This document shows, in pieces, positions 40,942 to 60,105 of a stretch of 64,000 nucleotides of DNA. The stretch's first letter is position 1, and the number at the start of each line of letters is the position of its first letter. Source of the DNA: Vicinamibacteria bacterium (GTDB lineage Bacteria; Acidobacteriota; Vicinamibacteria; Marinacidobacterales; Marinacidobacteraceae); NCBI GenBank assembly GCA_965199715.1, contig OZ241322.1:2240001-2304000 (forward strand), given 5' to 3'. Made by a program: the position numbers and the translations under genes. The notes under the pieces are model-generated. The model searched no databases. It saw only the letters and a program-made list of their open reading frames with translations, and was not told the DNA's origin.

Positions 40942-41348
40942 GCGGACTTTCGGGCGGCGCACGTCCGTCATTGGGAGGACGCTGAGTTGCTCCGCGACCA
41001 CCACCGCTGGGGAACGCGGACCAGTTGTACGGCTTCAGCGCGGAGTGCGGGCTGAAGGCGATAATGCGGTCCATGGGGATGGCCGTGGACGAATCGGGAG
41101 CGCCGACGGCGGGGGCGCACCGCGTCCACATCCAGAAGCTCTGGCCGGTGTTCGTGTAGCTGCTTCAGCTCTCGGGCGACCAGCGGCTCAGGATGGTGCT
41201 CCCCGTGGGTGAGCCGTTCTCCGATTGGTCGCATCATGACCGCTACGCTGCGGGGAGCCACTGCGGACCGGCTTGCGTCGCGGCGCACCGCAACGCCGCC
41301 GATCGCATCCGCACCATGGTGCGCGAGGCAACAGGAAGGAAGGCTTGA
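40942..41348 (+). pseudogene. Decayed HEPN-like small gene
   Basis: ADFRAAHVRHWEDAELL..RW / NADQLYGFSAECGLK...PFSDWSHHDRY...KA*, with a frameshift at the G run ~41009-41012 and an in-frame TAG at 41157-41159. Its final TGA overlaps the ATG of the next gene. Confidence 0.6.
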
Positions 41349-42592: not shown

Positions 42593-42622
42593 ATGGACGC
42601 GCTAGCTCTGCTCATGGCGAAG

Positions 42623-43123
42623 TCAGGTGTCGTCTGGAGTCGGCGCAGACTCTGAGCGCACCTCGTCAAGCAGCGACTGCGCGAGCTCCAGCGTGCGGTC
42701 CAGCGGCGTGGTCTGAAGGTCGCCCGAGAGCTGCTTGAGCACGACTGGACACCCGGCGGCCGCCAAGCGATTGGCGACGTCCACGATTCGCTTGGGATCG
42801 CCGGTTTCAGGGCTGTCATGACCCAGGCGCGCCACTGAGACGACGGCGAGAAGGGAGCCGAGGTCTTCATCCATAATCTGTGACGTGTAGATGAACAACT
42901 TTCCCCACCGTGAGACCGGGCCCTGACGCGGCTCGAGCCCTCGCGCTAGGGCGGTTGCAACACTGAAGGCCCAGAAATCCACCTTCCTCCGAAAGGGGCG
43001 CTGTTCGACTCTCTCACGCTCCCCTGAGTGCATGCCCACGTAGCCGTTGACTGCGTCCTCGTGCTCTCGCGGCAGCATGAGCGACAGTCCTTGGGCGCGA
43101 AACAGATCTCGAAATTCACTCAC
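42623..43123 (-). CDS. Small dnd-associated (PbeD-like) protein
   Basis: 166 aa, GAGGAG RBS; PFRRKVDFWAFS...ANRLAAAG resembles the dnd-associated protein 4 pattern; lies directly after the ATPase. Confidence 0.5.
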   Translation of the reverse strand: MSEFRDLFRAQGLSLMLPREHEDAVNGYVGMHSGERERVEQRPFRRKVDFWAFSVATALARGLEPRQGPVSRWGKLFIYTSQIMDEDLGSLLAVVSVARLGHDSPETGDPKRIVDVANRLAAAGCPVVLKQLSGDLQTTPLDRTLELAQSLLDEVRSESAPTPDDT

Positions 43124-43135
43124 AGCGGACTCTCC

Positions 43136-45358: not shown

Positions 45359-45579
45359 CAGGAACTCTCCGGTGGGTGGGGCCGCTTCACAGCGCTCTCG
45401 ATCAGGGATCGAATTTCCTGGCGAATTCTCGGATGGGCCTTGATCCGATGCTGGTCCTCAAGATCAACGATTTCCATGACGAGCTTTACGACGTCCTCCG
45501 GGTCAAGTTTGTACGAGGGGGCGAGCCGACTCGCCTCTCTTCGGATCTCCGCAAGGAGTCGCTCAAAGTTGCTTACCAT
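45358..45579 (-). CDS. Small helical protein (PbeB-like position)
   Basis: 73 aa (MVSNFERLLAEIRREASRL...); overlaps the helicase stop and the ATPase start (TGATG). Confidence 0.6.
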   Translation of the reverse strand: MVSNFERLLAEIRREASRLAPSYKLDPEDVVKLVMEIVDLEDQHRIKAHPRIRQEIRSLIESAVKRPHPPESS

Positions 45580-47777
45580 GGCCTTCCCTTCGGCGTGGTC
45601 GTGGCCACCCAGTGCTCGTGAGGGCCGCTGAGGAGTGGGGGCCGTGCGCCTCCGAGTGGCCAGTAGGCTTGTGTGAGGCGCTCCAGATCGGCGGCGACCC
45701 CGTTCGGCCCCGCAAGGTTCTCGGCGTACCGTCCGAAGGCTTGGGCTCGGCTCAGTTCGGTTCGGACGATTCCCGCCACGGAGGGGTTTCCGTCGCTTCG
45801 AACCACGGACACCGGCGGCAGCCCGAGGAAATCGTGGACGATCGCTCTCGGCTTCGACGGGTGCATGCGCAGGACCCGGCCTCGCCGCTGTACCCACTCT
45901 CGCTCGACGGTTGACGATGCGACGATGAACGCCTCTCGGACGCTTGGGATATCGACCCCCTCGTCAAGTACGCGCTTGGCGAGAAGCACTTGGATTGCCC
46001 CCTCGGTGAACGAGTCAAGCACCCTCGCCAAGAGTCGAGGCTTCGCTGTCGTGTCCTGCGTGACTTGTGACCACCGAACACCGAGTTCGGTCAACACGCG
46101 CCCGATGTCTGTGAACTGGCTGGGTCGTTTCGCCGAGGCGTAGATGAGCGTGTGCTCAAGTTCGCTCGGCTCCCGGCGCAGCAATACAACCCGCAGCAAA
46201 TCGATCTTCGTTTGCGCGGTCTCGACGATGCGCCGGCGTGCGATGAGGAGCCGTCGCACGGCCTCATCTCCATCGTCGGACGCCATCGCTGCGCCGATGC
46301 GCTGGCTCAGGCGCTCGAACTCCTCAAGCTCGTCTCCGCCCAGAGTACAGGCGTGCACGTAGTACCGGTAAGGCACCAGGCAGAACCCAATCGCTCGGTC
46401 CAAGCCGAACTCGTACGCTGTTTTTCCGAAGAAATCGAAGATGGCCTCGGTCCCGTCGGGGTCGTATTGCCGCTCCGGCGTGGCGGACAGCGCAAGGCGC
46501 CTCTGGAAGAACTCCGGCTTGTTCTGGACGAACGAGTCCGCTCCAAGCGTGTGCGCCTCATCGCCGATGAGCATCGTCTCGACCGGTTCAGGCGCCGACC
46601 GGAGCTTCTGCTCCACCGTCCTCTGGAATCGCGCCGAGCAGAGCAGCCTGTTCGTCGCGACAACTACATGAGTTCCACCTCGCCGGAGGCTCCGGAAGAG
46701 TTGTGTGAGCTGCCTGTCAACGTCGCCGAGGCTCGGCGCGATCGCCTTCATGCCGAACTTCTTCACCTCGTCGCGCCACTGCAACACGAGCGGAACCGAA
46801 GGAGCCGAGATCACGACCAAGAATGCTTGGTGGTTCTTGAGGCGATCCTGGCAGCGGGCGGCGCAGATCAGCGCAGTGAGCGTCTTTCCCGCTCCAGTGG
46901 CCATCGCGATCACGCCGGTCTCGGGAGCTTCACCGCCTTCCCAAGCCTCTACCGCCTCCCCTTGATGAGCATACGGACCCGTCCTCCACTCAAGACCTGA
47001 CGGGATGCGCAGCCGGCGGACCGGGAGTGGCGCTGGTGCGGGAAGGGGATTCGGGGGCCGAATGAGGCGCTCGTAGTCGGCTGGTCTCGGGGCGGTTTCC
47101 GGCGCTGCCCGGATGATGTCCTCGCGCAGGGCGTCCGGTAGGTCCAGAACCCGGTGGATGCCGGCGCTCTCACCTTTCGTCCAGTCGCTCAGCGTCTTCA
47201 GGCCGGTGTGCACCCGTGCGGCGCTGTCAGCCACCCAAGAGACGTCCACGTCAAGGTGCTCGACGCCAGCAGCGACGCCTCGGCCCGTCGCGTTGCCGGA
47301 GCCTCGAGCCAGTACCTGATTGGTGCCGTCGTCAAACAGCCAAAGCTTCGGGTGGTAGTTGGACTCCGGTGTCGGGACGGCGATTCGCAGGCGAAGGCGA
47401 TTCGTGGCGATCATCCAGGAGAGGCAGTCCAGCGCGTGACGTGCGAGGCCGCCGCTCGTGGGTCGGCCGCGCAGGAAGACGTGGCCCACCAGCTCAGCCG
47501 CCTGCGTGTCGCTCATCTGCACTCCGCGCTCGATCGCCGAACGCTCGTCGGGGAACAGCGCCGGAGCGACGGTGAACTCCAACGGCTTGGCGTTCTCTCG
47601 GTTGAGGTAGAGGGCGAGGCCCGGCGCCAGTTGCCCGATCCAACCAGCCGTGAACCATCCGAATGCGCCCTTGACCGATGTCGCGGCGCGGAACCCGGGA
47701 ATGAGCACTTGAGCGGCCACGGGCTCGTCCGGGAGCCTGTAGAGCCTTGGCTCCAGTGTGCGCTCGTCCGAGAGCAT
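45573..47777 (-). CDS. PLD/HKD-like nuclease domain + SF2 DEAH helicase (PbeA / dnd restriction-enzyme-like)
   Basis: YHPKLWLFD...GSGNAT, then MATGAGKT, DEAH, LSAT, VLDEGVDIP and QRRGRVLR. Confidence 0.82.
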   Translation of the reverse strand: MLSDERTLEPRLYRLPDEPVAAQVLIPGFRAATSVKGAFGWFTAGWIGQLAPGLALYLNRENAKPLEFTVAPALFPDERSAIERGVQMSDTQAAELVGHVFLRGRPTSGGLARHALDCLSWMIATNRLRLRIAVPTPESNYHPKLWLFDDGTNQVLARGSGNATGRGVAAGVEHLDVDVSWVADSAARVHTGLKTLSDWTKGESAGIHRVLDLPDALREDIIRAAPETAPRPADYERLIRPPNPLPAPAPLPVRRLRIPSGLEWRTGPYAHQGEAVEAWEGGEAPETGVIAMATGAGKTLTALICAARCQDRLKNHQAFLVVISAPSVPLVLQWRDEVKKFGMKAIAPSLGDVDRQLTQLFRSLRRGGTHVVVATNRLLCSARFQRTVEQKLRSAPEPVETMLIGDEAHTLGADSFVQNKPEFFQRRLALSATPERQYDPDGTEAIFDFFGKTAYEFGLDRAIGFCLVPYRYYVHACTLGGDELEEFERLSQRIGAAMASDDGDEAVRRLLIARRRIVETAQTKIDLLRVVLLRREPSELEHTLIYASAKRPSQFTDIGRVLTELGVRWSQVTQDTTAKPRLLARVLDSFTEGAIQVLLAKRVLDEGVDIPSVREAFIVASSTVEREWVQRRGRVLRMHPSKPRAIVHDFLGLPPVSVVRSDGNPSVAGIVRTELSRAQAFGRYAENLAGPNGVAADLERLTQAYWPLGGARPPLLSGPHEHWVATTTPKGRPW

Positions 47778-47779
47778 CG

Positions 47780-49729
47780 CTAGGACGGTCGGCGCCGGCG
47801 GAGCATGCGCTGCAAGAGGGCGTCCGCATCGCCCACCTGATTCGCTTCCGTCGATGCGTCGCCGGAGCTCAGTTTCGCGGAACCGGGGCCGAGGATTGTC
47901 ACTCTGGCCCGGTCGCCCGGTTGAAGGCCGAGGCGCCGCAACGGCCCTGAGACGTAGCCGAGCGTTGCGCCGGTCGGGGAAGCCAGCTTCCATCGCAACG
48001 ACATTTCCCGACAGCCAATGGGACTCTCCAACGAGACCGCCACGCCGGAATCGGGCTCGCATCCGAGCGCCTTGGCGATCTCCCCGGGAACCCCGGTCAC
48101 GCTGTGGCCCTCGAAGTAGCGGCCATCCACGACGAAGCTCCAGTAGGGTGCGCCCTCGTCGTCATGTCCGTGCACTACGTCGTCCAACGGCCTTAGCTGG
48201 ACGGAGGAGGCGCTGGCCAGACTGATCATCCCGTCACGCACCGAGAAGCGAGCAGTCTTCATGTATGCCTCAACGCTCGTGGCCTGAACGCCGAATTTGG
48301 CGGGAATCTCCGCCAGTAGCCTCTTGGTCGTCGTGACGCCTCCGTCCTCGTCGATTCGCTGGATGATCTCGCCGACGATGCCGTCGTATTCATCGTCGAT
48401 CCACTCCTTGAGTCCCCAACGTTCCTTGTCGGCTCGCACGACGCTCGGAACGCTGGAGAGCGTGGCACCGACTCGAAGGGGATCAGCGATCCCGGAAGCG
48501 GCGGCGATTTCGGCCTTCGTGGCGGGTCTTCCGATGGAGATCAGAGCTGCTTTGGCCCGTGCTTTGGCTGTATCCCGACGCGCTAGCAGCCCACGGATAC
48601 GGTGCAGTCGATTGTGTCGGAGCAGCCAGTCCCAGAATCGCTCTCGGTAGTCCTCCGGGACATGCTGCATCAGAGCAGCCTCGACGATAAGGCCCACATC
48701 GTCTGCGAGCTCACCAACGCCATTCTGGAACTCCGAGAGGAACTGCCGACCGCGCTCATCAACGAAGACACCGGCTTCCAGCGAGTACCGCATGGCGTCC
48801 AGCAACGCGCTTTGGAATAGGCGGGTAGTGATCTGGTCTTCATCCGGCGAGATGTCGTCGAGGACTCGCCGCATGTCATTCTCAGACAAGATGGGATCGA
48901 GTTGGTCGTGGATCGTCGAGGCGACGACCCCCATCTCCGCACCAAGAGCGACACGAAGTTTCCGATGGATCTTTGCTTCCAACTGGCGAACGCGCTCCCG
49001 GGTCACGCCGAGTCGCTCGCCGAGCGCCTCCAGCGTGTCGCGCTTCTCACCGAGAAGTCGCCCCTCCAGAATCAGGCGATTCCGCTCGTCGAGCGCTTCC
49101 ACCGTACGGCCCAGCCGCCGGATGATGAGTACCGGGAGGCTGGGAGTCCCGGCAGCGAGGTCACGAACCTCAACCTCTTGGAGAGCCGCTTTGACTTCCA
49201 TCCGATCCGCCAGCACAACAAGTTCGGAGCACAGCGCCTCAAGGAGCGTCTGGGGGCCGCGCAGGTCGGCCGCAGTGGCGAGAAGCGTGCTGAGCGTGGG
49301 TGCGATCTCGCCCCAGCGTTGAGCGCTCTTCGGCAGCGCCTCTACTCGATCGGCTGACGTCACGGCGGCCTGAACGTCTTCCATCGCCTGCATGCGATCG
49401 GTCAGGAACGTCTCGAGCGCAGACAGGAGATCCCGGAGTGATGTCCATCCGAAACCCCTCATCCGCAGCAGCTCCTGCACCGTGAGTGCGCCGTCGCCCT
49501 GCGCAAATTCCTTCTGCCGACAGCAGTTGGCCGTTCGCACCTTCAGGACGAGCCAGCGCACAGTCGATCGCTCGAGGCCGGGGGGCCAAGCGATGGCGTG
49601 GAGTTCGGTCCGGGTGCCCTTGCGAACTGTGCGCAGCGCTGCGGAAATGGCTTGCAGATGGAGCCGTGCGGCCTCGGCTGAAGGGACCACTGTTCCCAGC
49701 GACCCGTCAGGCCGCGACATTCGGCTCAT
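47780..49729 (-). CDS. Protein with RNAP alphaCTD-like HhH, sigma70 region-4 HTH and wHTH repeats
   Basis: VRTANC...TVQELLRMRGFG.TSL, then TLEALGERLGVTRERVRQLE, then VRADKERWGLKEW. Start at 49729 or 49720. Confidence 0.7.
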   Translation of the reverse strand: MSRMSRPDGSLGTVVPSAEAARLHLQAISAALRTVRKGTRTELHAIAWPPGLERSTVRWLVLKVRTANCCRQKEFAQGDGALTVQELLRMRGFGWTSLRDLLSALETFLTDRMQAMEDVQAAVTSADRVEALPKSAQRWGEIAPTLSTLLATAADLRGPQTLLEALCSELVVLADRMEVKAALQEVEVRDLAAGTPSLPVLIIRRLGRTVEALDERNRLILEGRLLGEKRDTLEALGERLGVTRERVRQLEAKIHRKLRVALGAEMGVVASTIHDQLDPILSENDMRRVLDDISPDEDQITTRLFQSALLDAMRYSLEAGVFVDERGRQFLSEFQNGVGELADDVGLIVEAALMQHVPEDYRERFWDWLLRHNRLHRIRGLLARRDTAKARAKAALISIGRPATKAEIAAASGIADPLRVGATLSSVPSVVRADKERWGLKEWIDDEYDGIVGEIIQRIDEDGGVTTTKRLLAEIPAKFGVQATSVEAYMKTARFSVRDGMISLASASSVQLRPLDDVVHGHDDEGAPYWSFVVDGRYFEGHSVTGVPGEIAKALGCEPDSGVAVSLESPIGCREMSLRWKLASPTGATLGYVSGPLRRLGLQPGDRARVTILGPGSAKLSSGDASTEANQVGDADALLQRMLRRRRPS

Positions 49730-51224
49730 CACCCGGCGGGTGCGTCGCAGCACTGCGGATCAATCGGTGTCCCCTCAGAGAGAGACCCTTTTCCTGAAGT
49801 CGCCGGATCCATCCATCGCGAGTGCCGATTCGAGGTGTGTCGCTGTAGAGGCCCTTCGACTCCTCGATCCGGGTCAGACGGGCGAACTTCGGGCGCAACG
49901 GATGCTCGGGCAGAACGAACGCTTCCTTCCGGTGGAGAATCGGGGGGTTCCGGGACGCTGCGTAACTTCTTTCCCGTACATTGAAGCTCTGGAGGTGCAC
50001 CGTCAGGGAATCGCGGAGGGCCGGGTGAGGATCGGACTCGAAGTCCGGGTATGAGAGGTAGGACACCAAGGGTTCGTCGACGTGAAGCTTGACCACGTTG
50101 GCTCCGGCTACATGGCCGATGTACCTTCTGGCGCAGCCTTCGTAGAGCCTGAGCGCGAGGGGGAGCCCCTCCAGCGCACTCTTGTGGACGTAGATGGCGG
50201 TCGGCATGCGCTTCCCGACCGAGGACTGTCGGGCTGCCCTCGCAATCCGAGTCGGATCTCCGATGGCCAGGAGCGCCCGGTCCGCCTCCTCGCACGCTCG
50301 CCGATATGTGGAGAACAGGCTTCTGAGGTCCCGCTGTAGGACGGTAGGCAGACGGCCCATGGGGACCCGCCCGTCAAAGCGGCTCAGCGCGAGGAAGAGC
50401 AACAATTCCTGAGTTCTCGCAGCGATGATGAGTCTCCACTGGCGGCGGTCGTGCGTGCGCTCAATGAGTCGAAATGCTCGGCGCACGCTCCCGAAGCGCT
50501 CGGCGATCCGTTGAGGGTCACTCAGCTCATCTTCCCGTGGGGCGCGAGCGTGGCGGTGGAAGAAGGCGATCAGGGGCTCCAAGAGCTCCCGGTGTTCCAG
50601 AACGATCGACACGGCGGTCGTGCGGCTCCGAACCGTGGTCCCCTCGAATCGGCGCGCCAGGAAGGCTGCCCGGTCGGTGCTGTCCCGGAAGACGTAGAAG
50701 ACCCCCGGCGCTGCGGCGACGGCACGTTTGCCGAGCACGGCTTCGACCCAGTCCGCCAGCTCGCGCTGCTCGTAGAATTTCTGGAAGGTTCCGATTGACG
50801 TGACGCACCCATCCGCATGATGTCCGGTTGGGACAAGCCCCGTGGACTGCGAGGCGAGACGCGCCGAAACGATGAGTGCCTTTCGGGCGAAAGACCACGC
50901 CTTGCGAAGGCACTCCGCCCTCTCTATTGGATCCTCGATGACGTTCACGACGTATCCGAGGTTCACAATCTGGGCGGGCGCGCGGGAGTCAGGGCCTTGA
51001 TGCGCCGGGTCCCACCCCCAGCTCTTGATGCCCCGACGGCGCAAATTTCGGACATCGTCACCGAGTCCGCAGCCGTAGTCGAACACACTCGTTGACGGTG
51101 TGATGAGTCCGTCCGACAAGGCAGCGGCGACCGGCCGGGAAAGGTCCAGGCGAGCGATGGCGGTGCGACGGCGATTTCGGCTGAGCGCCGCCGCGCCATC
51201 CCGACACTCTGCGTAGCGCTTCAG
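49707..51224 (-). CDS. DNA phosphorothioation-associated putative methyltransferase
   Basis: RTAIAR..LSRPV, FDYGCGLGDD, GWDP, VNLGYVVNVIED, GTFQKFYEQ, LSYPDF..DPHPAL and NPPILHRKE. Start codon ambiguous. Confidence 0.82.
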   Translation of the reverse strand: MKRYAECRDGAAALSRNRRRTAIARLDLSRPVAAALSDGLITPSTSVFDYGCGLGDDVRNLRRRGIKSWGWDPAHQGPDSRAPAQIVNLGYVVNVIEDPIERAECLRKAWSFARKALIVSARLASQSTGLVPTGHHADGCVTSIGTFQKFYEQRELADWVEAVLGKRAVAAAPGVFYVFRDSTDRAAFLARRFEGTTVRSRTTAVSIVLEHRELLEPLIAFFHRHARAPREDELSDPQRIAERFGSVRRAFRLIERTHDRRQWRLIIAARTQELLLFLALSRFDGRVPMGRLPTVLQRDLRSLFSTYRRACEEADRALLAIGDPTRIARAARQSSVGKRMPTAIYVHKSALEGLPLALRLYEGCARRYIGHVAGANVVKLHVDEPLVSYLSYPDFESDPHPALRDSLTVHLQSFNVRERSYAASRNPPILHRKEAFVLPEHPLRPKFARLTRIEESKGLYSDTPRIGTRDGWIRRLQEKGLSLRGHRLIRSAATHPPGDEPNVAA

Positions 51225-52102
51225 GAGGCCCTCTCTACGGCGTCTTCCATGATTTGGTCCAGATCGTCGTCGCGCAGGACACCCAATTCGAGAGCGCCCT
51301 GCAGCGCCGTCGTCCTTCTGCACAGGCGGCGAAGACCCTTGGAGGAACGCAGTTTCGTTTTCTCCGTCTTGTCTAGGAAACAGGCCAAGGCGCGCAGGAA
51401 GGAACCGCGGATGTTGTCGGACCCAAAGGTTGAGTTGCGGAACACGATCCGGTCCACGAACTTCTCCCAATAGTCCTGACTGAGGCGCACGACGGCGCGA
51501 ATCCGTGCGGCGCACTCTTCATCGCCACGACTCGCTTGCGCAACGATGCGCTCGCGCCACCACGCCCTTGCGAAAGGACAGTCCACGAAAACCGACCGAT
51601 TGCCGCGCACCTCGGGCAGCCCCCCCAAGCGTCGGAGGACAGTACGCACACACGAATCCATCAACTTGGGTGCCTGTTGGGATGAGTCGGCCAACGCGGC
51701 GTCGATGCGCTCGGCGCCGCCGGAGAGATTCCCGCCATTGCACGCCAAGTAGGCGGACTCGATCCGCCCCTCCCGGATGTGAGTCAGCGTGAGATTGGCC
51801 CAGAAAGCAGACCTTGAAGCGGCGGCCGGGGTCAGCGCGGACCACATCAAGAACAGTGCGTGCTCGGTGTCACTCGGTGGGTCCTTGTACTCGTTCTCTG
51901 TCAATGGATCCGCCGCTACTGCCGCGCGAGTGGCGCCCATCCGGGGGATCTCGGTGAAATAATCCAAGAACTTCGTCGACTCGCACGCAGCCTCCAAGAA
52001 TTCTCGCTGGGCATCCGATCCCTTCTCTCGGAGGAGTGTTCTCCGGGTCTTCGTGTAGACGGCGTCATCCAAGACCTCGAAGTCCGCCCCAGAGCCGCTC
52101 AT
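51221..52102 (-). CDS. Hypothetical protein (DUF6339-like)
   Basis: 293-aa ORF with ATGA overlap; AFWANLTL and ARAWW recall the DUF6339 'RLWW' pattern (family call tentative). Confidence 0.6.
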   Translation of the reverse strand: MSGSGADFEVLDDAVYTKTRRTLLREKGSDAQREFLEAACESTKFLDYFTEIPRMGATRAAVAADPLTENEYKDPPSDTEHALFLMWSALTPAAASRSAFWANLTLTHIREGRIESAYLACNGGNLSGGAERIDAALADSSQQAPKLMDSCVRTVLRRLGGLPEVRGNRSVFVDCPFARAWWRERIVAQASRGDEECAARIRAVVRLSQDYWEKFVDRIVFRNSTFGSDNIRGSFLRALACFLDKTEKTKLRSSKGLRRLCRRTTALQGALELGVLRDDDLDQIMEDAVERAS

Positions 52103-52974
52103 GCGCTCGCTGCGCCGTCGACTTCTGTCGTGGGCTCACTGGGAACGACCAGGGGAGTCAACTCCGTTGCGACCTTTTCTGGACGGAATCCCGAGTCACT
52201 CCAGTGCCCGAGCTTCTTCTGGCTCAGTTGATCCGCCAGCGATCGGAGGGCCGAGTGCGACTTCCATCCCATCTCTCCATCGTCATCGGCGAAGTCTCGC
52301 TGCAGCCGTGCCAGACAGGCGGTCACAATGTGGGTCAGCGTGTTGTGACGCTCGATGGCGTCGCGGCGGAAGCGCAGGAACTTGTGCATGTCGCGATCAA
52401 CCTTGACGCGAAAGCGGAACGGTTCCGTGTCCACGTCCACTTCTACATGTCCCTTCGGAGCCTCGTCATTGGTCTTCAGATGGATCAGGTGGAAGACTGA
52501 GGTCTGAAGTTGGAACACGTTGCCGACGGCAAGGCGGGACCCAGGCCTGAGCATGATGGTCCGCTTGTCCCAGATCTGATGTACGTCATGACTCGCCGCG
52601 CTGAGACTGACCGATTGATGTCGCCTACAGACGATAAGCGGCGTGAAGAGTGGTGGTTCGGCGAGCTCCGCGTCCTTCCAAGCTACGTCGTGCTGAGGAG
52701 AATCGGACACGTGTATCTTGCGGTAACCGGACGAGGGCGCTGACACGATGCATGCGAACCGAACGGAGCCTGTCTTCACAAGGTTGCCGATCAGGCCCGC
52801 GTGTTGAGTGCGGTGGGTAATTCGAAAGGACGTTCGATCCTCGCCGGCCTCGAAATCCAGCCAGTAGCGTCCGAGGGGAAACGAGGGGTTTCCCGGCTCC
52901 AGAATAGGGTGGTCGTGCGAGCGCACCGCGTTAGTGAACTGAGGTTCGACGACCGTGATTTGCGTGATCGCCAT
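52099..52974 (-). CDS. Hypothetical protein
   Basis: 291-aa ORF in operon context; beta-rich N-terminal half and helical C-terminus. Confidence 0.7.
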   Translation of the reverse strand: MAITQITVVEPQFTNAVRSHDHPILEPGNPSFPLGRYWLDFEAGEDRTSFRITHRTQHAGLIGNLVKTGSVRFACIVSAPSSGYRKIHVSDSPQHDVAWKDAELAEPPLFTPLIVCRRHQSVSLSAASHDVHQIWDKRTIMLRPGSRLAVGNVFQLQTSVFHLIHLKTNDEAPKGHVEVDVDTEPFRFRVKVDRDMHKFLRFRRDAIERHNTLTHIVTACLARLQRDFADDDGEMGWKSHSALRSLADQLSQKKLGHWSDSGFRPEKVATELTPLVVPSEPTTEVDGAASA

Positions 52975-52991
52975 CGCTACCGTTCCGAGTC

Positions 52992-54962
52992 TTAGTCGCT
53001 GGTGGATTCTGCAGTGTCCGACGGTGCGCTCTGGAACAGCTGAACCCGGAGCGATGCCCCGGCCATGCCAGCGAAGTCGCCGGCAAGGCCGTAGTCCACA
53101 TTGACGACCTTGACTTCGCCCGCACGCAGTTGGCCGATGCGGATTCCCGTCACGACTGCGCCCGTCTTCACCAAGGCGCTCTGTGTGGCCTCTTTGCCGT
53201 CGATTTGAACATTGTCCAATTCGAGCGGTGTGTACTCGTCTTGGCCGGGTCGTAGGCAGGTCGCGTCGAGCGCCTCGTCCACAACGAGGCGGAGCTCGGC
53301 GTCATTGAAATCCTTGATTGACTCGACGTGGATCGAGCGTCGCGACGATCCGAGGGGGCACGACACGACTCGAAAACATTCCGGGAGCGACGGTCTCCGG
53401 CGTTGGTCGGGATTCCGGGGAGGCGAGGATCGACTCTTGCTGGCTGTTGCTCCACTGGGTTCACCGGTCCCACGGGGGACGGGGACTTCAAACGGACGCT
53501 GTCGGTTCGGGTTCTGAGCGATCACGCTGGGGCTACCCCAGAAGTTGCTACGCGTCTTGCCACCGGTGCCTGTACCGTCCTCAGAGTCGATAGAGAGGAA
53601 GTCGTCGGCTGCGAACGCGTCTGTGCGGATTTCCTGTGTGTTGTCGCGAATCCAATCCTTGATCTCGTGAAACGCAGCGCGGCAGGCCCTGCGGTTGAGA
53701 GGAGGAAGGCGCTTGATGTGGATTGCGTCGTGCAGCGGTCCCTCCGCCAGTCGAACGAATTCGTGAAGGTCGTCGCCAGGCACGGAGTCAAGGCAGAGGA
53801 CTGCGTGGAAGGGGACCCGGTCACCGAAGTAGCTCGTAATGCCCGGGAGTCCTGAGGTGATCCACATCCCGTTCCGGCAAATGTCAATGCGTGTTCGTCC
53901 GCTTGGCCGTTCCAACAGATGGATTTCAACGTCGCCGCTGCTCGTCTTGATCGTGTCAATCGATCCGCCTCGGTGCGCTTCGTTGGCTTCGAATGCGTCA
54001 CGACCGTTCAGAAAAGCTCGCCGCTGAACGGTACTGGCGTTGCGCCGCAGAATCTCGAGCAGATTGGACTTGTCCAGAGTGCTGGAGCCGAATTCAGGGC
54101 TCGGACGCGCATCCTCGACCGTCACGATGAGATCGCCTCGAGCAATCGCAACGAAAAAATTGGCGGCGGCAGCGGCGGACACGACGCGATCAAGATCGTC
54201 ACTTCCCTTGTGCAGGAAGTGGTTGAAACCGGGGATGGTGACCGCACTCCCGTGGTCCCACGAACTGCGAATTTCCGTGAGTATGTCCTTGAAGAAATGA
54301 GGTATGTCGCGGCCAGTGGCAAAGTGGTAGGGCCGACCACCACTTCCGAATCCCTTTACTAAAAAACCGTCACCCGATCGAAGCGTGCCGCCACGGTTGA
54401 AGTGGGATGCGAGGACGGCGTGGCCGCACGCAATCCTCCGACCGCTGGACGTGACGCCGGCATACAGCAGATAACGAAGATTGGAAGCCGGGATCGCCGT
54501 TGTATGGCCGTTCCCGTAGGTGCCGGTTGCGCCCGTCCCTTTGACGCTTACGCCGTCACTGAGAAGTGCCGTGAGTCGTTTCCTGTCGAGGCCGACGCCG
54601 TTGTCGAGAACCGTGAGTACCTCGATCTCATCGCGAGCGAGCTCCTCCTTCATGCGGGCCACAACAAGCTGGGCCTGCTGCGCCAGATCGCCGCCAACCC
54701 TCCGCTGCGTTGCGACCGCGTGCCTGAGTGCCTCCTTGTACGAGGCCATTCCCGGGATCTGCGTCCGCTCGATGCGCGACAACCGAAACAGCACGTGGGC
54801 AGGAGTGCGGTCGGCCTCTCTGGCCGCATCCATGGCGTTCTGGATCAGTTCTCGAACGATCGCCGCTGGACGCAGGTCGTCGAAAGCGGCGATGCCCGCG
54901 GCAGTGAAACCGGAGATACCGTCACTCCGCCCGAATCGCAGATCCGGCGCTCCGTGCGGCAT
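52992..54962 (-). CDS. GHKL (Bergerat-fold) ATPase-like protein
   Basis: N-box RELIQNAMDA, G1 DNGVGL, G2 GTYGNG, G3 HGSAVTI; low-complexity linker and beta-rich C-terminal domain. Confidence 0.72.
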   Translation of the reverse strand: MPHGAPDLRFGRSDGISGFTAAGIAAFDDLRPAAIVRELIQNAMDAAREADRTPAHVLFRLSRIERTQIPGMASYKEALRHAVATQRRVGGDLAQQAQLVVARMKEELARDEIEVLTVLDNGVGLDRKRLTALLSDGVSVKGTGATGTYGNGHTTAIPASNLRYLLYAGVTSSGRRIACGHAVLASHFNRGGTLRSGDGFLVKGFGSGGRPYHFATGRDIPHFFKDILTEIRSSWDHGSAVTIPGFNHFLHKGSDDLDRVVSAAAAANFFVAIARGDLIVTVEDARPSPEFGSSTLDKSNLLEILRRNASTVQRRAFLNGRDAFEANEAHRGGSIDTIKTSSGDVEIHLLERPSGRTRIDICRNGMWITSGLPGITSYFGDRVPFHAVLCLDSVPGDDLHEFVRLAEGPLHDAIHIKRLPPLNRRACRAAFHEIKDWIRDNTQEIRTDAFAADDFLSIDSEDGTGTGGKTRSNFWGSPSVIAQNPNRQRPFEVPVPRGTGEPSGATASKSRSSPPRNPDQRRRPSLPECFRVVSCPLGSSRRSIHVESIKDFNDAELRLVVDEALDATCLRPGQDEYTPLELDNVQIDGKEATQSALVKTGAVVTGIRIGQLRAGEVKVVNVDYGLAGDFAGMAGASLRVQLFQSAPSDTAESTSD

Positions 54963-54968
54963 GTCGGT

Positions 54969-56120
54969 TCAGGCGGCTAGAGCGGGTGCCACGGCGGCTG
55001 CGAGGGCCGCGACCGCCTCGCTGACGTCCTCGTCCGTCGTGAAACGTCCGAGACCGATGCGGACGCCGGTCGAGGCTGCAGCCCGGTCAAGACCCAGCGC
55101 GAGCAACACGCGGGATGGCTCGAAGGTCGCCGATGCGCACGCTGATCCCGACGAGATGGCGATCCGTTCGGACACGGCGCGGATGACCTCGTCGGCATTC
55201 AGCCCCGGGAAGCCGACGTTCAGGTTTCCGGCTACGCGCTCACGCTCGTGGCCGAACAGTCGCAGGTCTGGTCTAACCGCACGGAGTTCGTTGTAGAGGC
55301 GTTTCGTCAGCGACGCGATCCGGGCCCGATCTTCCTCCTGCCGCACTAGGGCCACCTCGCACGCCCTTCCGAATCCGGCGATCAGGGCTGTGGGCACGGT
55401 GCCGCCCCGGCGGCTCCGTTCCTGGGAGCCGCCGGTGATGACCGGTCGGAGTTCGACCCCCGAGCGCACGTACAGGGCCCCCACCCCCTTGGGTCCGTAA
55501 ACCTTGTGGCTCGAGATGCTGAGGAGATCCACGCCCCACTCATCGACATCAATGGTCAGCCGACCGGCCGCCTGTGTCGCATCCGTGTGGAAGAGCGCGC
55601 CGCAGGCATGACAGAGCTCGGCGATCTCCGGGATCGGCTGCAGGACTCCGATTTCGTTGTTCACGGCCATCACCGAGACGATCAGCGTGCGCTCGTCCAG
55701 AACTGACTCAAGGCGCCCAAGATCAGCAAGCCCGTCCTTCCCGACGGGGAGAATCGCAATCTCATGGCCGTCGCTACCCAGATCCCGCACGGTCTCAAGG
55801 ACCGCCGCGTGCTCGGTGGCCAGCGTCACAATGCGATTTCGGCCACCGTTGCGTTTTCGGTTGGCGACGCCACGCAGCGCGAGGTTGCAGCTCTCCGTCG
55901 CCCCGGACGTGAACACGATCTCATCGTCGTCGGCGTTCAGAAGGCTTGCGACCTGCGCCCTGCCGAGTCGGACCGCCTGGGATGCGTTCCAGCCGAACCG
56001 ATGGCCGTGCGAATGCGGATTGCCGAACTCCTCTGCGAGGTAGGGGCACATCGCCTCCCGAACTTCAGGATCCATCGGAGTCGTCGCCTGGTAGTCCAGA
56101 TAGACGGGCCTGTGACTCAT
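54969..56120 (-). CDS. Cysteine desulfurase, IscS/DndA type
   Basis: YLDYQATTP, GNPHS, FTSGATES, NNEIG, HTDATQ, SSHKVYGPKG and catalytic SSGSAC; ATGA overlap with the upstream gene. Confidence 0.92.
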   Translation of the reverse strand: MSHRPVYLDYQATTPMDPEVREAMCPYLAEEFGNPHSHGHRFGWNASQAVRLGRAQVASLLNADDDEIVFTSGATESCNLALRGVANRKRNGGRNRIVTLATEHAAVLETVRDLGSDGHEIAILPVGKDGLADLGRLESVLDERTLIVSVMAVNNEIGVLQPIPEIAELCHACGALFHTDATQAAGRLTIDVDEWGVDLLSISSHKVYGPKGVGALYVRSGVELRPVITGGSQERSRRGGTVPTALIAGFGRACEVALVRQEEDRARIASLTKRLYNELRAVRPDLRLFGHERERVAGNLNVGFPGLNADEVIRAVSERIAISSGSACASATFEPSRVLLALGLDRAAASTGVRIGLGRFTTDEDVSEAVAALAAAVAPALAA

Positions 56121-56122
56121 TC
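56095..56122. repeat. Left arm of the inverted repeat flanking the PAPS-reductase-like gene
   Basis: Minus-strand GAATGAGTCACAGGCCCGTCTATCTGGA; matches plus-strand 57620-57645. Confidence 0.75.
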
Positions 56123-57607
56123 GGTGCAGTCGCAGGGGAGCATCGTCTCGGCGAGTGCGCCCAGCTCGCGGCCGTTGGCCACGTCGTCGTAGGAAAAGTC
56201 GTTGTTGCCGAAGAATCCGATGTGCTTCACCTTGCTTCGCGTAGCTCGCTTCTCTGCCTCGAGATCGCGCCCGTACTTCGCCTCCATTCGCTTCCACCAC
56301 GCCAAGTCACACGGCGTGCCCGAAAATGCACCGTTCCCACCTGCTCCGTTGGTCATGTGGGCGTGAACGGTCCTCAGATTCACCGCGCCCTTGAGGAAGC
56401 AGTACACGCAGTTGGACAGGCCAGAGTCATGTGGCAGCTTCAGATCCCACGTTTGGCCCTCCCAGAAGCGATTCACGTCCTCCCTGGCGACCGCCATGTC
56501 GGCGAGCGGCATATAGATGTGCTCGCCCTCATAGCCTGAAGCGGAGTCGTTGCGGCTGCTCACTCGCTGCACCCGGTGCGGCTCATCGTGGCGCAGGCCG
56601 ATGAACGCTACGTACTGGGCGCCGCCTTTGCCGAACCGAGCCTTGCCGCCGAAGGTCTTGCCCTTGAGATGTTCGTTCTCGAACGGCGTCCAATCGGGCC
56701 AGTAGTCCTCGAATCGTTGCTCAGGTCGAAAGTGAGGCCTCTCCCAAGCGAACCGACGCTTCTCAAGGAAGATTTCCCTGGGCACGCCGCCCTGGTTCTT
56801 CAGGTGCCGCCGGTAGGCCGCGTCCGGGTTCATGCGTGGCCTGCGTCCAAAGTGACCCATGCGCGGAATTCCGGGCTTCCCGGAGAACCAATCCCGAAGA
56901 AAGGCGCGAGTCACTTCCAGCTTGAGGTGTCGCGTGCAGATTCGCTGGAACTGATTCGGGACGTAGCCTGACCACGACAGTAGTTCCTCAAACACCTCGC
57001 CTTGCCAGTGGAACCCATTCGGGTTGGACGCCGACCGGGGGTTCTCGTTCACAAGGCGGTAAGTCGGAAGACGTGTCCATTCCCCCTGCCGGGCGTCCTC
57101 GTAGGTTTGGAATTCGATCTGAAAGAACGGGATTCCGTAGCGGTGCGCGGCGCGGATGCAGTCCCCTACGAACTCGTAAGTGCCCGGGTGCTCCGCGGCC
57201 GTGTTGTTGAAGACGATCACGTCGCCCCGGTCCTGCCGCAGGAGTCCGTTGTGGAGAAGCGTGAAGAGAAGCATCCCGCTGGAACGGCCGCCGGAAAACT
57301 TCACGACGTGCGGCAGCGAGCTGTGCTTTCTGGACCGGTACCGGAAGAGATGCGCACGGTTCGGGTCGTGCGTGGCAGGGGAGCGGGCGATCCTCGTTGA
57401 GGGCGACAGCGACGGGATGCCGCAAACCTCAAAGCTCGGGGCCGATTGTGGGCCCGGTCGGGTGGCAGCCGGTTCGCTGGTCACCGGCGGCTGCGCCGAG
57501 GTGATCGGAAGCTCCCATGCCGTGTTCGCACCGATGACGGTTGAACCCTGAGAGCCGTCCGAACGTCGGCTCGCCTGCGACGCGGTGACCATGCCCAATT
57601 GTGGCAT
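56117..57607 (-). CDS. PAPS-reductase-family PP-loop protein (DndC-like fold, NinC-like subtype)
   Basis: VKFSGGRSS, FNNTAAE, RICT..LK, IGLRHDE..R, SNCVYCFLKG and terminal CDCTE. Start at 57607 or 57592. Confidence 0.82.
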   Translation of the reverse strand: MPQLGMVTASQASRRSDGSQGSTVIGANTAWELPITSAQPPVTSEPAATRPGPQSAPSFEVCGIPSLSPSTRIARSPATHDPNRAHLFRYRSRKHSSLPHVVKFSGGRSSGMLLFTLLHNGLLRQDRGDVIVFNNTAAEHPGTYEFVGDCIRAAHRYGIPFFQIEFQTYEDARQGEWTRLPTYRLVNENPRSASNPNGFHWQGEVFEELLSWSGYVPNQFQRICTRHLKLEVTRAFLRDWFSGKPGIPRMGHFGRRPRMNPDAAYRRHLKNQGGVPREIFLEKRRFAWERPHFRPEQRFEDYWPDWTPFENEHLKGKTFGGKARFGKGGAQYVAFIGLRHDEPHRVQRVSSRNDSASGYEGEHIYMPLADMAVAREDVNRFWEGQTWDLKLPHDSGLSNCVYCFLKGAVNLRTVHAHMTNGAGGNGAFSGTPCDLAWWKRMEAKYGRDLEAEKRATRSKVKHIGFFGNNDFSYDDVANGRELGALAETMLPCDCTE

Positions 57608-57619
57608 GTGCGGGTGTCA

Positions 57620-57645
57620 GAATGAGTCACAGCCGTCTCTCTGAA
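57620..57645. repeat. Right arm of the inverted repeat flanking the PAPS-reductase-like gene
   Basis: Plus-strand GAATGAGTCACAGCCGTCTCTCTGAA; 13-bp perfect core shared with 56110-56122. Confidence 0.75.
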
Positions 57646-57652
57646 TCAGCCC

Positions 57653-60055
57653 CTACGGCGCCGGTTCCAGCATCAGCCGGTGCTCGGTCACCGATTCCAC
57701 GCGCCCCCGGGTGTACGCCAGCGGGAAGTACTGGTTGCGCACCCAGAGGTCGAACAGGTCGCGGTAGTGGGGGTTCATCGGATCGCCTGACTGGCCGGGG
57801 GTCGAGGTCGCGATCGAGTTGTCCCAGTCGGACGGGTCGAGGATGACGCGGAAGCTGCCGCCGGAGCGCTGGTTGTCGCCGCCGCCGGTGTTGTTCACGG
57901 TGGACTCGTAGCCGCCCCGGGGGTAGGGGCCGACCTCGAGCAACTGCCGGGTCTCCTCGTCCACCGCGTCCGCCATGTAGTGCGTGATGTGGACGTGCTT
58001 CATGTTTTCCTGCCCGTAGCGCCAGTTCGCCATGTCGGTTCCGAGCCGCTCCTCGACGTCCTGGACGCCGTCGGCGAGCGCCTTGACCAGCAGCGCGTCC
58101 CGGGCGTTGATGGGATCGTTCCCGAACCGGCCGTCGGGGGCCATCAGGTGGTCGAGCATCCGCTTCTTGTTCACCCGAGAGACGTAATCCCGCGCCGCTT
58201 CCGGGATGTACAGCTCGCCGACCGCTTCCGACACGCGCCGCTCGAAGTGCAGGTAGATCGTGGCCGCGACCGAATCCATTCCCATCACGAAGTCCCAATC
58301 CTTGAGCAGCGTCAGCGCCGGGCTCTCGGGCGGCTCGGCGAGCAGCAGCAGCGGCACGAGGTTGCGCGCCACGACGCTGAGCTCGTCGTGCTGGTAGGCC
58401 ATCATGTCCTGGACGGTCATGCGCCGCCCGTCGCGCATCAGCTCGTCCACCCGCAGGCCCCGCATCTCGTCGCCCCACGTGAAGTGGAGCGCCTCGGGGT
58501 GCGGATAGTCCGACTGGACCGCCGGCGCCATCAGGTTGTTCGCGGTGCCCCAGAAGCCTTTCTCCGGGTTCTTCACCGAGGGCAGCGCCTTGATCGGGAG
58601 CAGGCCCGACCACTCGTAGCGCCCGTCGCCGGGAACCGGCACGAGGCCGCTCCAGTTCGCGTTGCGGATCGGCGACACGCCCACCGCCTGGTAGCCGATG
58701 TTGCCCTTGACGTCGCCCCAGATCATGTTCTCGGCCGGGATGCCGCTGTAGGCGCACGCCTCGACGAACTCCTCCCAGGTGCGCGCCTGGTCCATGCGCA
58801 GGCTGGCGAGATAGGGAGAGTTGCCGATCTCGAGCCAGGCGGCGTTGAGCGCGTACGCCTTGTGGTTCTCGCCGTCCTCGTGGAGCACCGGCCCGTGGCG
58901 GGTGTACTTGAGCGTCGCGACGTGGTCGGCCTGTCCCTTCACCCGGATCGTTTCCGTCCGGATCGTCATCGCTTCCCACTCGCCGAGGTAGCGGTACTCG
59001 TGGGGGTTCTCCGGGTTCGTGTCATAGACCATCAGGTCCTCGTTGTCCTGCCCGAAGACGGTCAGGCCCCACCCGCCGTATTCGTTGTGCCCGATGGAGA
59101 GGCCGGGCAGCACCGGCTCGCCGCCCCCGATCACGTTCCATCCCGGCCCCTTGATGTGGACGAAGTACCGGAGCGACGGCGCCACGATGGTGCGATGCGG
59201 GTCGTTGACGATCAGCGGGAGTCCGGTCCAGGTGCGTTCGCCGCCGACGACCCAGTTGTTGCTGCCGATGTGCTCGCCGAGATCCACGAGCCGCAGCTCG
59301 GAGGGGAACTCCTCGAGCAGCGCCAGCCGCTCGGCGTCCCGGTTGCGGTACTCGGCGGCGATCTGGTCCGGGCTGAAGGTGACCGGTCCCCGGAAGGCCC
59401 GGTAGACGTCGAGGATCTCGGGCTTCAGCAGCGAGCCGTCGATCGCCGGATCCAGCGCGAGCTGCGGCGTCCCCGGCCGATACCAGTCCACGCCCATCAT
59501 CGCCTCGGGGCCGACCGCCGCCACCGCCATCCCGATGTTGAGCTCGCTCGTGACGTTCGAGAGCAGCCCCTGATGCCGGGAGATGACGTCCTTTTCGGTC
59601 CACGGTTCGGGAAGGATCCCGAGCAGCCGGAACTCCAGCGGCAGCGAGTCCGGATCCTGCCGCGCCCGCTCCACGGCGGCGTTGATCCCCCGCACGAACG
59701 CCGGGATGATCTTGTCGCCCCTCTCGTGGTACCAGCGCATCTCCTCGCCCATGTCCTTGCGGAACTGGTGGAGCCTCGTCCCGATGTCGCGCTGGAGCTC
59801 GCCCGGGCCGAGGATCTCGGCGACCGTGCCCGTGGCCTGCCGGCGCCACATCTCGAACTGGAAGAGCCGGTTCTCCGCCGCTCGGTAGCCCTGCGCGAAG
59901 AAGAGGTCGTCCTCGGTCTCCGCGTAGATGTGGTCCACTCCCCAGCGATCCACGAGCACCTCCACCGCCCGCTCCAGCCCGGCGACGGCGCGGGTCTCGT
60001 CCTGGGCGAGCCCCGGAGCGGCGAGAAGGATCAGCGCGGCGAGGAATCGGGTCAT
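57653..60055 (-). CDS. Penicillin acylase family (S45) Ntn-hydrolase
   Basis: Signal peptide, DRWGVDHIYA, RLFQ, GSNNW autocleavage site, NDPH, TRHGP and TANN; AAGGAG RBS. Confidence 0.9.
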   Translation of the reverse strand: MTRFLAALILLAAPGLAQDETRAVAGLERAVEVLVDRWGVDHIYAETEDDLFFAQGYRAAENRLFQFEMWRRQATGTVAEILGPGELQRDIGTRLHQFRKDMGEEMRWYHERGDKIIPAFVRGINAAVERARQDPDSLPLEFRLLGILPEPWTEKDVISRHQGLLSNVTSELNIGMAVAAVGPEAMMGVDWYRPGTPQLALDPAIDGSLLKPEILDVYRAFRGPVTFSPDQIAAEYRNRDAERLALLEEFPSELRLVDLGEHIGSNNWVVGGERTWTGLPLIVNDPHRTIVAPSLRYFVHIKGPGWNVIGGGEPVLPGLSIGHNEYGGWGLTVFGQDNEDLMVYDTNPENPHEYRYLGEWEAMTIRTETIRVKGQADHVATLKYTRHGPVLHEDGENHKAYALNAAWLEIGNSPYLASLRMDQARTWEEFVEACAYSGIPAENMIWGDVKGNIGYQAVGVSPIRNANWSGLVPVPGDGRYEWSGLLPIKALPSVKNPEKGFWGTANNLMAPAVQSDYPHPEALHFTWGDEMRGLRVDELMRDGRRMTVQDMMAYQHDELSVVARNLVPLLLLAEPPESPALTLLKDWDFVMGMDSVAATIYLHFERRVSEAVGELYIPEAARDYVSRVNKKRMLDHLMAPDGRFGNDPINARDALLVKALADGVQDVEERLGTDMANWRYGQENMKHVHITHYMADAVDEETRQLLEVGPYPRGGYESTVNNTGGGDNQRSGGSFRVILDPSDWDNSIATSTPGQSGDPMNPHYRDLFDLWVRNQYFPLAYTRGRVESVTEHRLMLEPAP

Positions 60056-60105
60056 GGGACGCTCCTTCGGGGACTCGATCATACCGGCTGATAATTTCCA
60101 CGCCG

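Follow-up and report, generated by a model that had tools for sequence, protein, structure and literature searches.

In the genome of a Vicinamibacteria bacterium, a short inverted repeat brackets the gene of an enzyme resembling phosphoadenosine phosphosulfate (PAPS) reductases, and one of its arms contains both the stop codon of this gene and the start codon of the cysteine desulfurase gene that follows. The locus is on contig OZ241322.1 of assembly GCA_965199715.1, in a stretch of 64,000 nucleotides (positions 2,240,001 to 2,304,000 of the forward strand) which is here called the window, and in which all positions are counted from the first letter. This arrangement raises the question of whether the repeat is a switch acting in the DNA or in the messenger RNA (mRNA), whether it records the way in which the locus was assembled, or whether it is a coincidence. 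The reading that we favour, with a confidence somewhat short of even, takes it for a scar specific to this lineage: a short piece spanning the stop-start junction of the two genes would have been copied, in inverted orientation, to the edge between an island and the core genome. The repeat is, in our opinion, an ordinary kind of feature, to which a mildly interesting and easily testable RNA hypothesis is attached. The elements on which the argument turns are listed below.

56095..56122, minus strand: left arm of the inverted repeat, in coding sequence (sequence reading, repeat scan and alignment)
57620..57645, plus strand: right arm of the inverted repeat, non-coding, within the spacer (sequence reading, repeat scan and alignment)
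56117..57607, minus strand: PAPS-reductase-like PP-loop enzyme, DndC/SspD-like, 496 amino acids (open reading frame, ORF; PADLOC SspD 8.9e-8, BrxP 0.0024)
54969..56120, minus strand: cysteine desulfurase, DndA/SspA/IscS-like, 383 amino acids, with a product that starts MSHRPVYLDYQATTP (PF00266, 1.3e-82)
57608..57652, minus strand: spacer of 45 nt from the stop codon of the upstream amidase gene to the first ATG of the PAPS-like gene, holding the right arm (sequence reading)
57653..60082, minus strand: gene of the penicillin-amidase family, core genome, co-directional and immediately upstream (PF01804, 9.4e-188)
57449..57652, minus strand: remodelled 5' patch of about 200 nt, comprising an N-terminal extension and the leader (no counterpart in any homologue)
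56129..56141, minus strand: second, weaker complementary block (12/13), partner of 57569-57581 (repeat scan and flank alignment)
57569..57581, plus strand: partner of the second block, within the N-terminal extension of the PAPS-like ORF (repeat scan and flank alignment)

The inverted repeat and its rarity in the genome

Direct reading and a repeat scan identified a 13-nt inverted repeat, 56110-56122 and 57620-57632, the arms of which are 100% complementary and 1,497 nt apart. When this core is extended outward, to 56095 and 57645, 24/26 bases match, with a 2-nt gap and two substitutions; in fact, the minus strand from 56122 to 56095 is GAATGAGTCACAG-GC-CCGTCT-A-TCTG-G-A, and the plus strand from 57620 to 57645 is GAATGAGTCACAG--CCGTCT-C-TCTG-A-A. 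A previous sequence-only reading of the window had described this perfect 13-bp core with the same extension and the same gap, which direct reading and alignment reproduced, and had assigned to the repeat the stop codon of the PAPS-like gene and the ATG of the desulfurase gene, which we found both in the core of the left arm. This arm holds the end of the PAPS-like gene (its final two codons, GAA TGA) together with the first 9 codons of the desulfurase gene (MSHRPVYLD), and the two genes overlap there as ATGA, with the TGA at 56119-56117 and the ATG at 56120-56118; the core also holds the 7-bp palindrome TGAGTCA. The right arm lies 7 nt from the amidase stop codon and 12 nt upstream of the first ATG of the PAPS-like gene. 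The second complementary block is offset by 32 nt from the main diagonal.

To what extent is such a pair expected by chance? Perfect inverted repeats of at least 13 nt within 3 kb are common in this genome, which is 71.5% GC, with 1,767 maximal pairs in contig C1 alone; among the pairs listed, the GC content of the arms is 0.54-1.0, and that of the focal arm is 0.46. Because inverted 13-mers are so commonplace here, a composition-weighted gapped local score was used. On this scale the focal pair reached 37.7 bits and ranked 5th among 9,602 seed pairs in 548 kb, three of the four pairs above it belonging to one repeated element. First-order Markov simulations of the same 548 kb (n=3) gave 0, 0 and 1 pair at 37.7 bits or more, corresponding to about 0.04 per 64 kb. 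The alignment of 241-nt flanks scored 41, which was reached by none of 500 shuffles and by 2 of 1,043 real control windows taken from the same window. Moreover, the 2,656,567 bp of the genome contain no exact occurrence of the 13-mer other than these two, and its single copy with one mismatch is inside unrelated ORFs and does not extend.

The repeat could thus be thought of as an A/T-rich 13-mer with a fortuitous extension, which happened to fall at two gene boundaries. This would agree with the abundance of inverted 13-mers in C1, with the pair of 40.6 bits obtained in one of the three simulated sequences, with the two control windows equalling the extended alignment, and with the selection of the repeat after the sequence had been read, as one among very many windows. 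In the same island, the PbeC-like gene contains a perfect 15-nt GC-rich inverted repeat (44038-44052 / 44834-44848), without positional meaning, that scores a near-equal 37.2 bits and serves as an internal control for how easily such pairs arise here. On the other hand, only about 0.04 pairs are expected per 64 kb at the focal score, the 13-mer is otherwise absent from 2.66 Mb, and a further factor, roughly estimated at 1e-3, comes from both arms being only a few nt away from the ends of one gene. We regard the repeat as real and a chance origin as unlikely, not astronomically so, and it was picked out post hoc; as an explanation, coincidence is improbable.

Homologous loci and the edge of the island

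Homologues of the PAPS-like gene were found in one genome locus (L014, 69% identity), in a locus of genome G009 (L005, 53%) and in at least 34 metagenomic loci. The desulfurase gene is collinear and directly downstream in 16 of 29 other loci and inverted in none; the other 13 have no desulfurase in the DNA fetched, several of them because the contig ends. Across the 26 other loci for which the junctions were listed, the PAPS-like protein ends with '...PCDCT[ED]*' and the downstream desulfurase, where present, begins with 'M..P[VI]YLD'; five of these junctions have a stop/start overlap, which is ATGA in L014, L018, L020 and L025, and GTGA in L019. The GAATGA and CC.GT.TA.CT.GA part of the left arm is dictated by the two proteins and, to judge from these alignments, the left arm must be ancestral and constrained by coding, which leaves the right arm as the derived one of the two.

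The complementarity between leader and junction is peculiar to the present locus. Here the z-score of the duplex was -2.05, a value as low being found in 1 of 100 shuffles, while none of the 24 other loci scored showed complementarity, with z-scores from -1.06 to +1.59; two more loci had too little flank to be scored, the scored set includes four pairs of near-duplicates, and the duplex prediction permits very loopy duplexes, which gives the conservation test limited power. A repeat scan found no equivalent repeat in L014 and L005, and the leaders of the 11 homologous loci inspected have no motif in common. The first 110 nt of L005, at the 5' end of the G009 contig, consist of poly-C/poly-G junk, probably an assembly artefact, and this leader was unusable for the conservation test. 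More closely related relatives carrying the island were not found in the collections searched. The sequence-only reading had proposed to check whether homologous loci keep the repeat or show the gene in the opposite orientation: neither was the case, as the repeat was kept in none of the 24 loci scored and the gene was inverted in none of the 29 examined.

In three genomes of the same genus (G001-G003) the amidase gene has 80-82% DNA identity to that of the window, and the PAPS-like gene is lacking. The stretch that these genomes share with the window stops where the amidase gene does (at 57653 for L016 and L017, at 57660 for L015) and, in two of the three, homology resumes at about 40.8 kb. 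Each of the four genomes of the genus has different DNA just 3' of this stop codon (57646-57652 of the window; around position 3045 of L015-L017): it is an AT-rich segment in G001, an ORF for a release-factor-like protein (GGQ) in G002, another sequence in G003, and the 15-kb island in the present genome. The different 3' sequences in G001-G003, together with the resumed homology in two of them, indicate that the 3' side of the amidase gene is a variable insertion hot-spot. The right arm is the first island-specific sequence past the core-genome homology, and the right edge of the island is marked by a step in GC content from about 0.72 to about 0.63.

The 5' end of the PAPS-like gene is equally specific to this lineage. 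Homologues align only from residue 48-99 of the query onward, residues 1-57 are lineage-specific and predicted to be disordered, with a predicted local distance difference test (pLDDT) score below 50, and at the position where the homologues start the present gene has no ATG, GTG or TTG. The candidate start codons are the ATG at 57607 and that at 57592, and the spacer contains an in-frame TGA at 57619-57617. A blastn search of 57440-57652, 213 nt that cover the remodelled stretch, against the genome and all the fetched loci revealed no convincing source, the best match being 62 nt long, 77% identical and GC-rich. The spacer scan, in which promoters were sought with a sigma-70-type consensus only, found no promoter-like site and no minus-strand terminator-like site. 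We also compared 57590-57700 with 41000-43300 in search of attachment (att) sites of the island, and discarded them, as the best direct and inverted scores were 20 and 21, and shuffles had a mean of 21.1 and a maximum of 28. A 19-nt quasi-palindrome with 6-bp perfect outer arms (57590-57608) spans both candidate ATGs, in the 32-nt stretch between the complementary blocks; in the mRNA it would form a small hairpin occluding the starts of the PAPS-like gene.

Scar, mRNA helix or DNA switch

An inverted copy of the junction, about 26 nt long and possibly once about 70 nt, would have come to lie in the remodelled 5' end of an island acquired by horizontal transfer; the left arm would have been held in place by the two overlapping coding sequences, and the right arm would be the copy. 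The second 12/13 block, on a nearby diagonal, would be the expected remnant of a longer inverted copy (about 70 nt) that decayed with indels, its significance being marginal. Templated or inverted micro-duplications occur at rearrangement junctions, where they are known as template-switch repair scars. The scar of a past event had been the third option offered by the sequence-only reading and, taken as a rearrangement scar, it is the one that best fits the position of the right arm at the island edge, the lineage-specific 5' patch and the lack of conservation, and we lean towards it without granting it quite half of the probability. If true, it would document, on a small scale and cleanly, the rebuilding that the 5' end of a defence island underwent when it was inserted, with the promoter and the native start lost, an N-terminal extension recruited and an inverted patch added.

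Several points weigh against the scar. Any sequence in the neighbourhood could have served as the source of a neutral copy. Under pure neutrality, the exact copying of the stop/start junction of the very gene that the copy precedes would be a coincidence of about 1 in 100, by our estimate, and this therefore favours selection for an RNA helix over a neutral copy. We infer copying from the similarity of the arms alone, and neither a source event, nor an intermediate, nor a close island-bearing relative was found. The flanking blocks are only marginally significant, given the two real control windows with scores as high.

Once in place, the copy may have had a consequence for the mRNA. Transcription through the right arm is plausible because the island has no visible promoter, starts 45 nt behind a co-directional core gene and is not separated from it by a terminator-like site. 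A transcribed right arm could pair with the junction 1.5 kb downstream, in a helix of 25 bp that buries the UGA/AUG overlap, and the desulfurase start would then be reachable only by ribosomes that finish the upstream ORF; this predicted long-range helix is the sole plausible physical effect of the repeat. The duplex of the two arms has a predicted energy of -36.6 kcal/mol, and in the minimum-free-energy structure of a 1,616-nt transcript, from the amidase stop codon into the desulfurase gene, 25/26 bases of the right arm are paired with the left arm, the 13 core pairs having ensemble probabilities of 0.73-1.00; one of the two mismatches in the DNA is a G.U pair in the mRNA sense. These thermodynamic predictions leave aside ribosomes and co-transcriptional kinetics over a translated ORF of 1.5 kb, and any transcribed inverted repeat would be predicted to fold likewise. 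The suggestion in the sequence-only reading that the leader, if transcription starts upstream of 57645, can pair with the initiation region of the desulfurase gene proved sound on thermodynamic grounds and found no counterpart in any of the 24 other loci.

Whether the helix was selected is a distinct matter. In such a case the leader would pair, as a long-range element in cis, with the stop/start overlap, the whole DndC-like ORF being looped out, and the synthesis of the desulfurase would depend strictly on termination-reinitiation by ribosomes leaving that ORF; alternatively, the 25-bp duplex could be a processing site for RNase III. This control would compensate for the insertion of a promoter-less island behind a host gene. 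One arm covers exactly the region where translation of the next cistron is initiated, and its partner belongs to the leader of what would be the same transcript; the predicted stability and pairing probabilities reported above and the G.U pair agree with this, and the block at 57569-57581 would add another one; the main argument for selection is, however, the exact choice of the stop/start junction as the segment copied. Moreover, ATGA overlaps have been linked to termination-reinitiation coupling, as described in PMC6728339, and the rpmI-rplT leader offers a precedent in which, according to the account in PMC1888825, long-range pairing sequesters nucleotides next to an initiation site. The main argument against selection is the absence of complementarity from all of the other loci scored, including those with the same ATGA; in addition, a single instance provides no covariation, the helix would abut the start of the DndC-like gene itself, 12 nt away, and the 1.5-kb span is translated. 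The mRNAs of E. coli operons have also been reported, in the part of PMC5318159 that deals with them, as ORF-centred folds insulated from each other and not bridged across start sites. We consider a selected regulatory helix possible and rather unlikely. In the form of a clamp bracketing the ORF, in which the inverted stop/start copy would be retained in the leader so that synthesis of the desulfurase is tied to that of its partner, or so that RNase III cleaves the transcript there, the idea is likewise a tentative one, to which we give a minor share of our confidence. If true, the clamp would be a built-in device for stoichiometry, or a dosage limiter, in a potentially harmful DNA-modification module; if formed and relevant, the helix would be an unusually long-range (1.5 kb) structure around an ORF, enforcing translational coupling in a defence operon. 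The hypothesis is easily testable, the right arm being non-coding and freely mutable.

A switch at the DNA level was the other mechanism suggested from the sequence, namely that recombination in the core flips the 1.5-kb gene and turns the modification off. Its structural premise held, since the GAA-TGA and the ATG lie in the core and crossing-over there would keep both ORFs intact, and the repeat does bracket a discrete segment; the on/off switch itself received no support from the searches for recombinases or from the relatives. No invertase is present in the window, as had been noted from the sequence, and in the genome, which is 93% complete, there is no match to PF00239 (serine invertase/resolvase) or PF01548 (IS110/Piv-type). 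The nine matches to PF00589 (tyrosine recombinase) are all outside the window and far away from it, from where they could act in trans. Where a desulfurase can be seen, in 16 loci, the gene is never in the opposite orientation; conservation of the repeat is lacking, and next to the core the arms are told apart by an indel of 2 nt and two substitutions. An identity of 13 bp is too short for RecA-dependent inversion. Furthermore, a flip would silence the modification enzyme only, leaving the PbeA-type nuclease-helicase genes in place, which would presumably be harmful and not adaptive. In favour of a site-specific recombinase encoded elsewhere, the account in bioRxiv 10.1101/2023.03.11.532203 indicates that the invertases for the validated intragenic invertons of Bacteroides thetaiotaomicron had not been identified. 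All considered, an invertible switch is the least probable of the explanations that we weighed, and, in genomes rich in GC, inverted repeats on either side of a gene should not be taken as phase-variation switches without evidence of a recombinase or of both orientations. Elsewhere in the genome, adjacent tyrosine-recombinase genes form clusters (G000 C1:759392-760737, C2:305465-306810 and C2:10024-11366) unrelated to the window; identical scores in two of them suggest duplicated elements, perhaps resembling the 'recombinase-in-trio' kind.

Only slightly less doubtful than the switch is the idea that each arm is a copy of a site bound by a protein, the two making up an operator pair of a regulator of the island, such as the protein with a sigma-70 region-4 helix-turn-helix (HTH) domain, or of a host factor. 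The core palindrome TGAGTCA, present once in the leader and once where the next gene starts, and the HTH protein encoded in the island (PF04545, 2.6e-9) would suit this function. Nevertheless, GTGACTCAT with up to one mismatch has 5 occurrences in the window, where 7.0 are expected, the two arms are the only places in the window that match the 13-mer when two mismatches are allowed, the leaders of the 11 homologous loci inspected lack the motif, save for an isolated TGACTCA at the ATG of L043, and a match of 24/26 goes far beyond what copies of an operator need. A transposable element with terminal inverted repeats was considered and rejected: the flanks CCTGGTAG and TCAGCCCC have no direct repeat, so there is no target duplication, and there is no transposase; also against an element of this kind, including a miniature inverted-repeat transposable element, the enclosed gene is a conserved member of the operon and the 13-mer has no other copies in the genome. 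To explanations beyond those considered here we leave a small part of the probability.

The bracketed gene, the host island and known systems

The product of the bracketed gene is, on the evidence of its family, probably a divergent PP-loop enzyme of the DndC/SspD-like type. Alone, the protein matches no Pfam model; of the 19 sequences of its family, 11 match PF01507, weakly and with E no better than 4.3e-4, and a sequence search with the family gave no match to PDB chains at E up to 1. An AlphaFold model built from the 19-sequence alignment (pLDDT 81; predicted template-modelling score, pTM, 0.82) had as best Foldseek matches the CysH PAPS reductase (E 0.02, probability 0.98) and the PP-loop domains of GMP synthase, with E of only about 0.02. 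A PP-loop-like motif K-F-S-G-x-R-S-S, in which x is G in at least 90% of the sequences, and a C-terminal P-C-x-C-T are invariant in the family. The gene is coupled to phosphorothioation genes, with the desulfurase directly downstream and TIGR04096, PbeA and PbeC in the same cluster. The desulfurase in turn matches the PADLOC profiles SspA (3.5e-143) and DndA (6.3e-143) and TIGR03235 (1.8e-117). The rest of the operon-like island, 42626..54962 on the minus strand, was annotated with Pfam, PADLOC and NCBIfam profiles as follows.

52992-54962, minus strand: PDC-M33A-like (PADLOC, 1.7e-34)
52099-52974, minus strand: PDC-M33B-like (PADLOC, 2.8e-5)
51221-52102, minus strand: DUF6339 protein (Pfam match)
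49707-51515, minus strand: DNA phosphorothioation-associated putative methyltransferase (TIGR04096, 5.6e-167, above the cut-off)
47780-49753, minus strand: protein with the sigma-70 region-4 HTH domain (PF04545, value given above)
45573-48062, minus strand: PbeA (PADLOC, 3.7e-150; TIGR04095, 3.2e-94, below the cut-off)
43136-45358, minus strand: PbeC/DndD-like ABC ATPase (PADLOC, 8.2e-40)
42626-43123, minus strand: ORF of 166 amino acids, no family match in profile searches

The island, from about 42.6 to 57.65 kb, has a GC content of 0.61-0.66, compared to 0.69-0.76 on both sides. Between it and a gene of about 1,300 amino acids, the plus strand at 41273-42592 encodes a variant AAA ATPase with a KGGVGR motif (NF047398, 2.2e-41); a longer ORF on the minus strand, 41243-42460, looks like a wrong-strand artefact of the high GC content. 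From its gene content, the host locus is a variant defence island of the phosphorothioation type. According to the account of PbeABCD in PMC10853773, PbeA joins an HKD nuclease to an SF2 helicase, PbeC is an ABC ATPase of the CxC type and PbeD is a cognate of DndE. With these CxC-ABC-ATPase-anchored systems, as presented there, and with the Dnd and Ssp systems, the locus shares PbeA, the PbeC-type ATPase, a DndA/SspA desulfurase, a PAPS-reductase-like enzyme and a dnd-associated methyltransferase. It differs from them in the DndC equivalent, which alone matches no Pfam model and SspD only weakly, in the lack of a canonical DndE, DndB or SspB/C, none of which was recognised in the island by profile scans, and in the extra genes for the PDC-M33A/B-like, DUF6339 and sigma-HTH proteins. 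This host locus of a divergent DndC-like enzyme is arguably more interesting than the repeat.

As for the repeat, the comparison with template-switch repair scars is the closest to the reading that we prefer, as it has in common with them a short inverted copy of a nearby sequence, exactly at a novel junction and with small indels; unlike those scars, its mechanism or intermediate is not one that a single genome can demonstrate, and to our knowledge such scars have rarely been described for the boundaries of bacterial islands. Invertons, which comprise invertible promoters and intragenic invertons, of which fimS and hin are examples, and which are catalogued by PhaseFinder and PhaVa, are instead DNA switches. 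The locus resembles them in that a delimited stretch of DNA lies between two short inverted repeats, as in the elements described in bioRxiv 10.1101/2023.03.11.532203; the differences are that here no invertase is nearby, the arms are imperfect, the relatives are all in one orientation, and the segment enclosed is a complete conserved gene and not a promoter or a portion of a gene.

At the RNA level, long-range pairing is known to control the translation of a cistron in phage MS2, through its long-distance interaction. The leader pseudoknot of infC-rpmI-rplT in E. coli, as far as it is described in PMC1888825, is similar in having one partner far upstream in the leader and the other in an initiation region, and in our locus too the start would be hidden by the pairing and freed by ribosomes that translate the upstream ORF. 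Both cases differ from ours, in which the span is about 1.5 kb, a whole ORF is enclosed, no protein ligand is implied, and the single, non-conserved instance is predicted from the sequence. Finally, the ATGA overlap between the DndC-like and DndA-like genes, present also in four of the homologous loci and as GTGA in a fifth, resembles those of termination-reinitiation systems; the overlap in itself is ordinary, and what is added here is the complementary copy in the leader.

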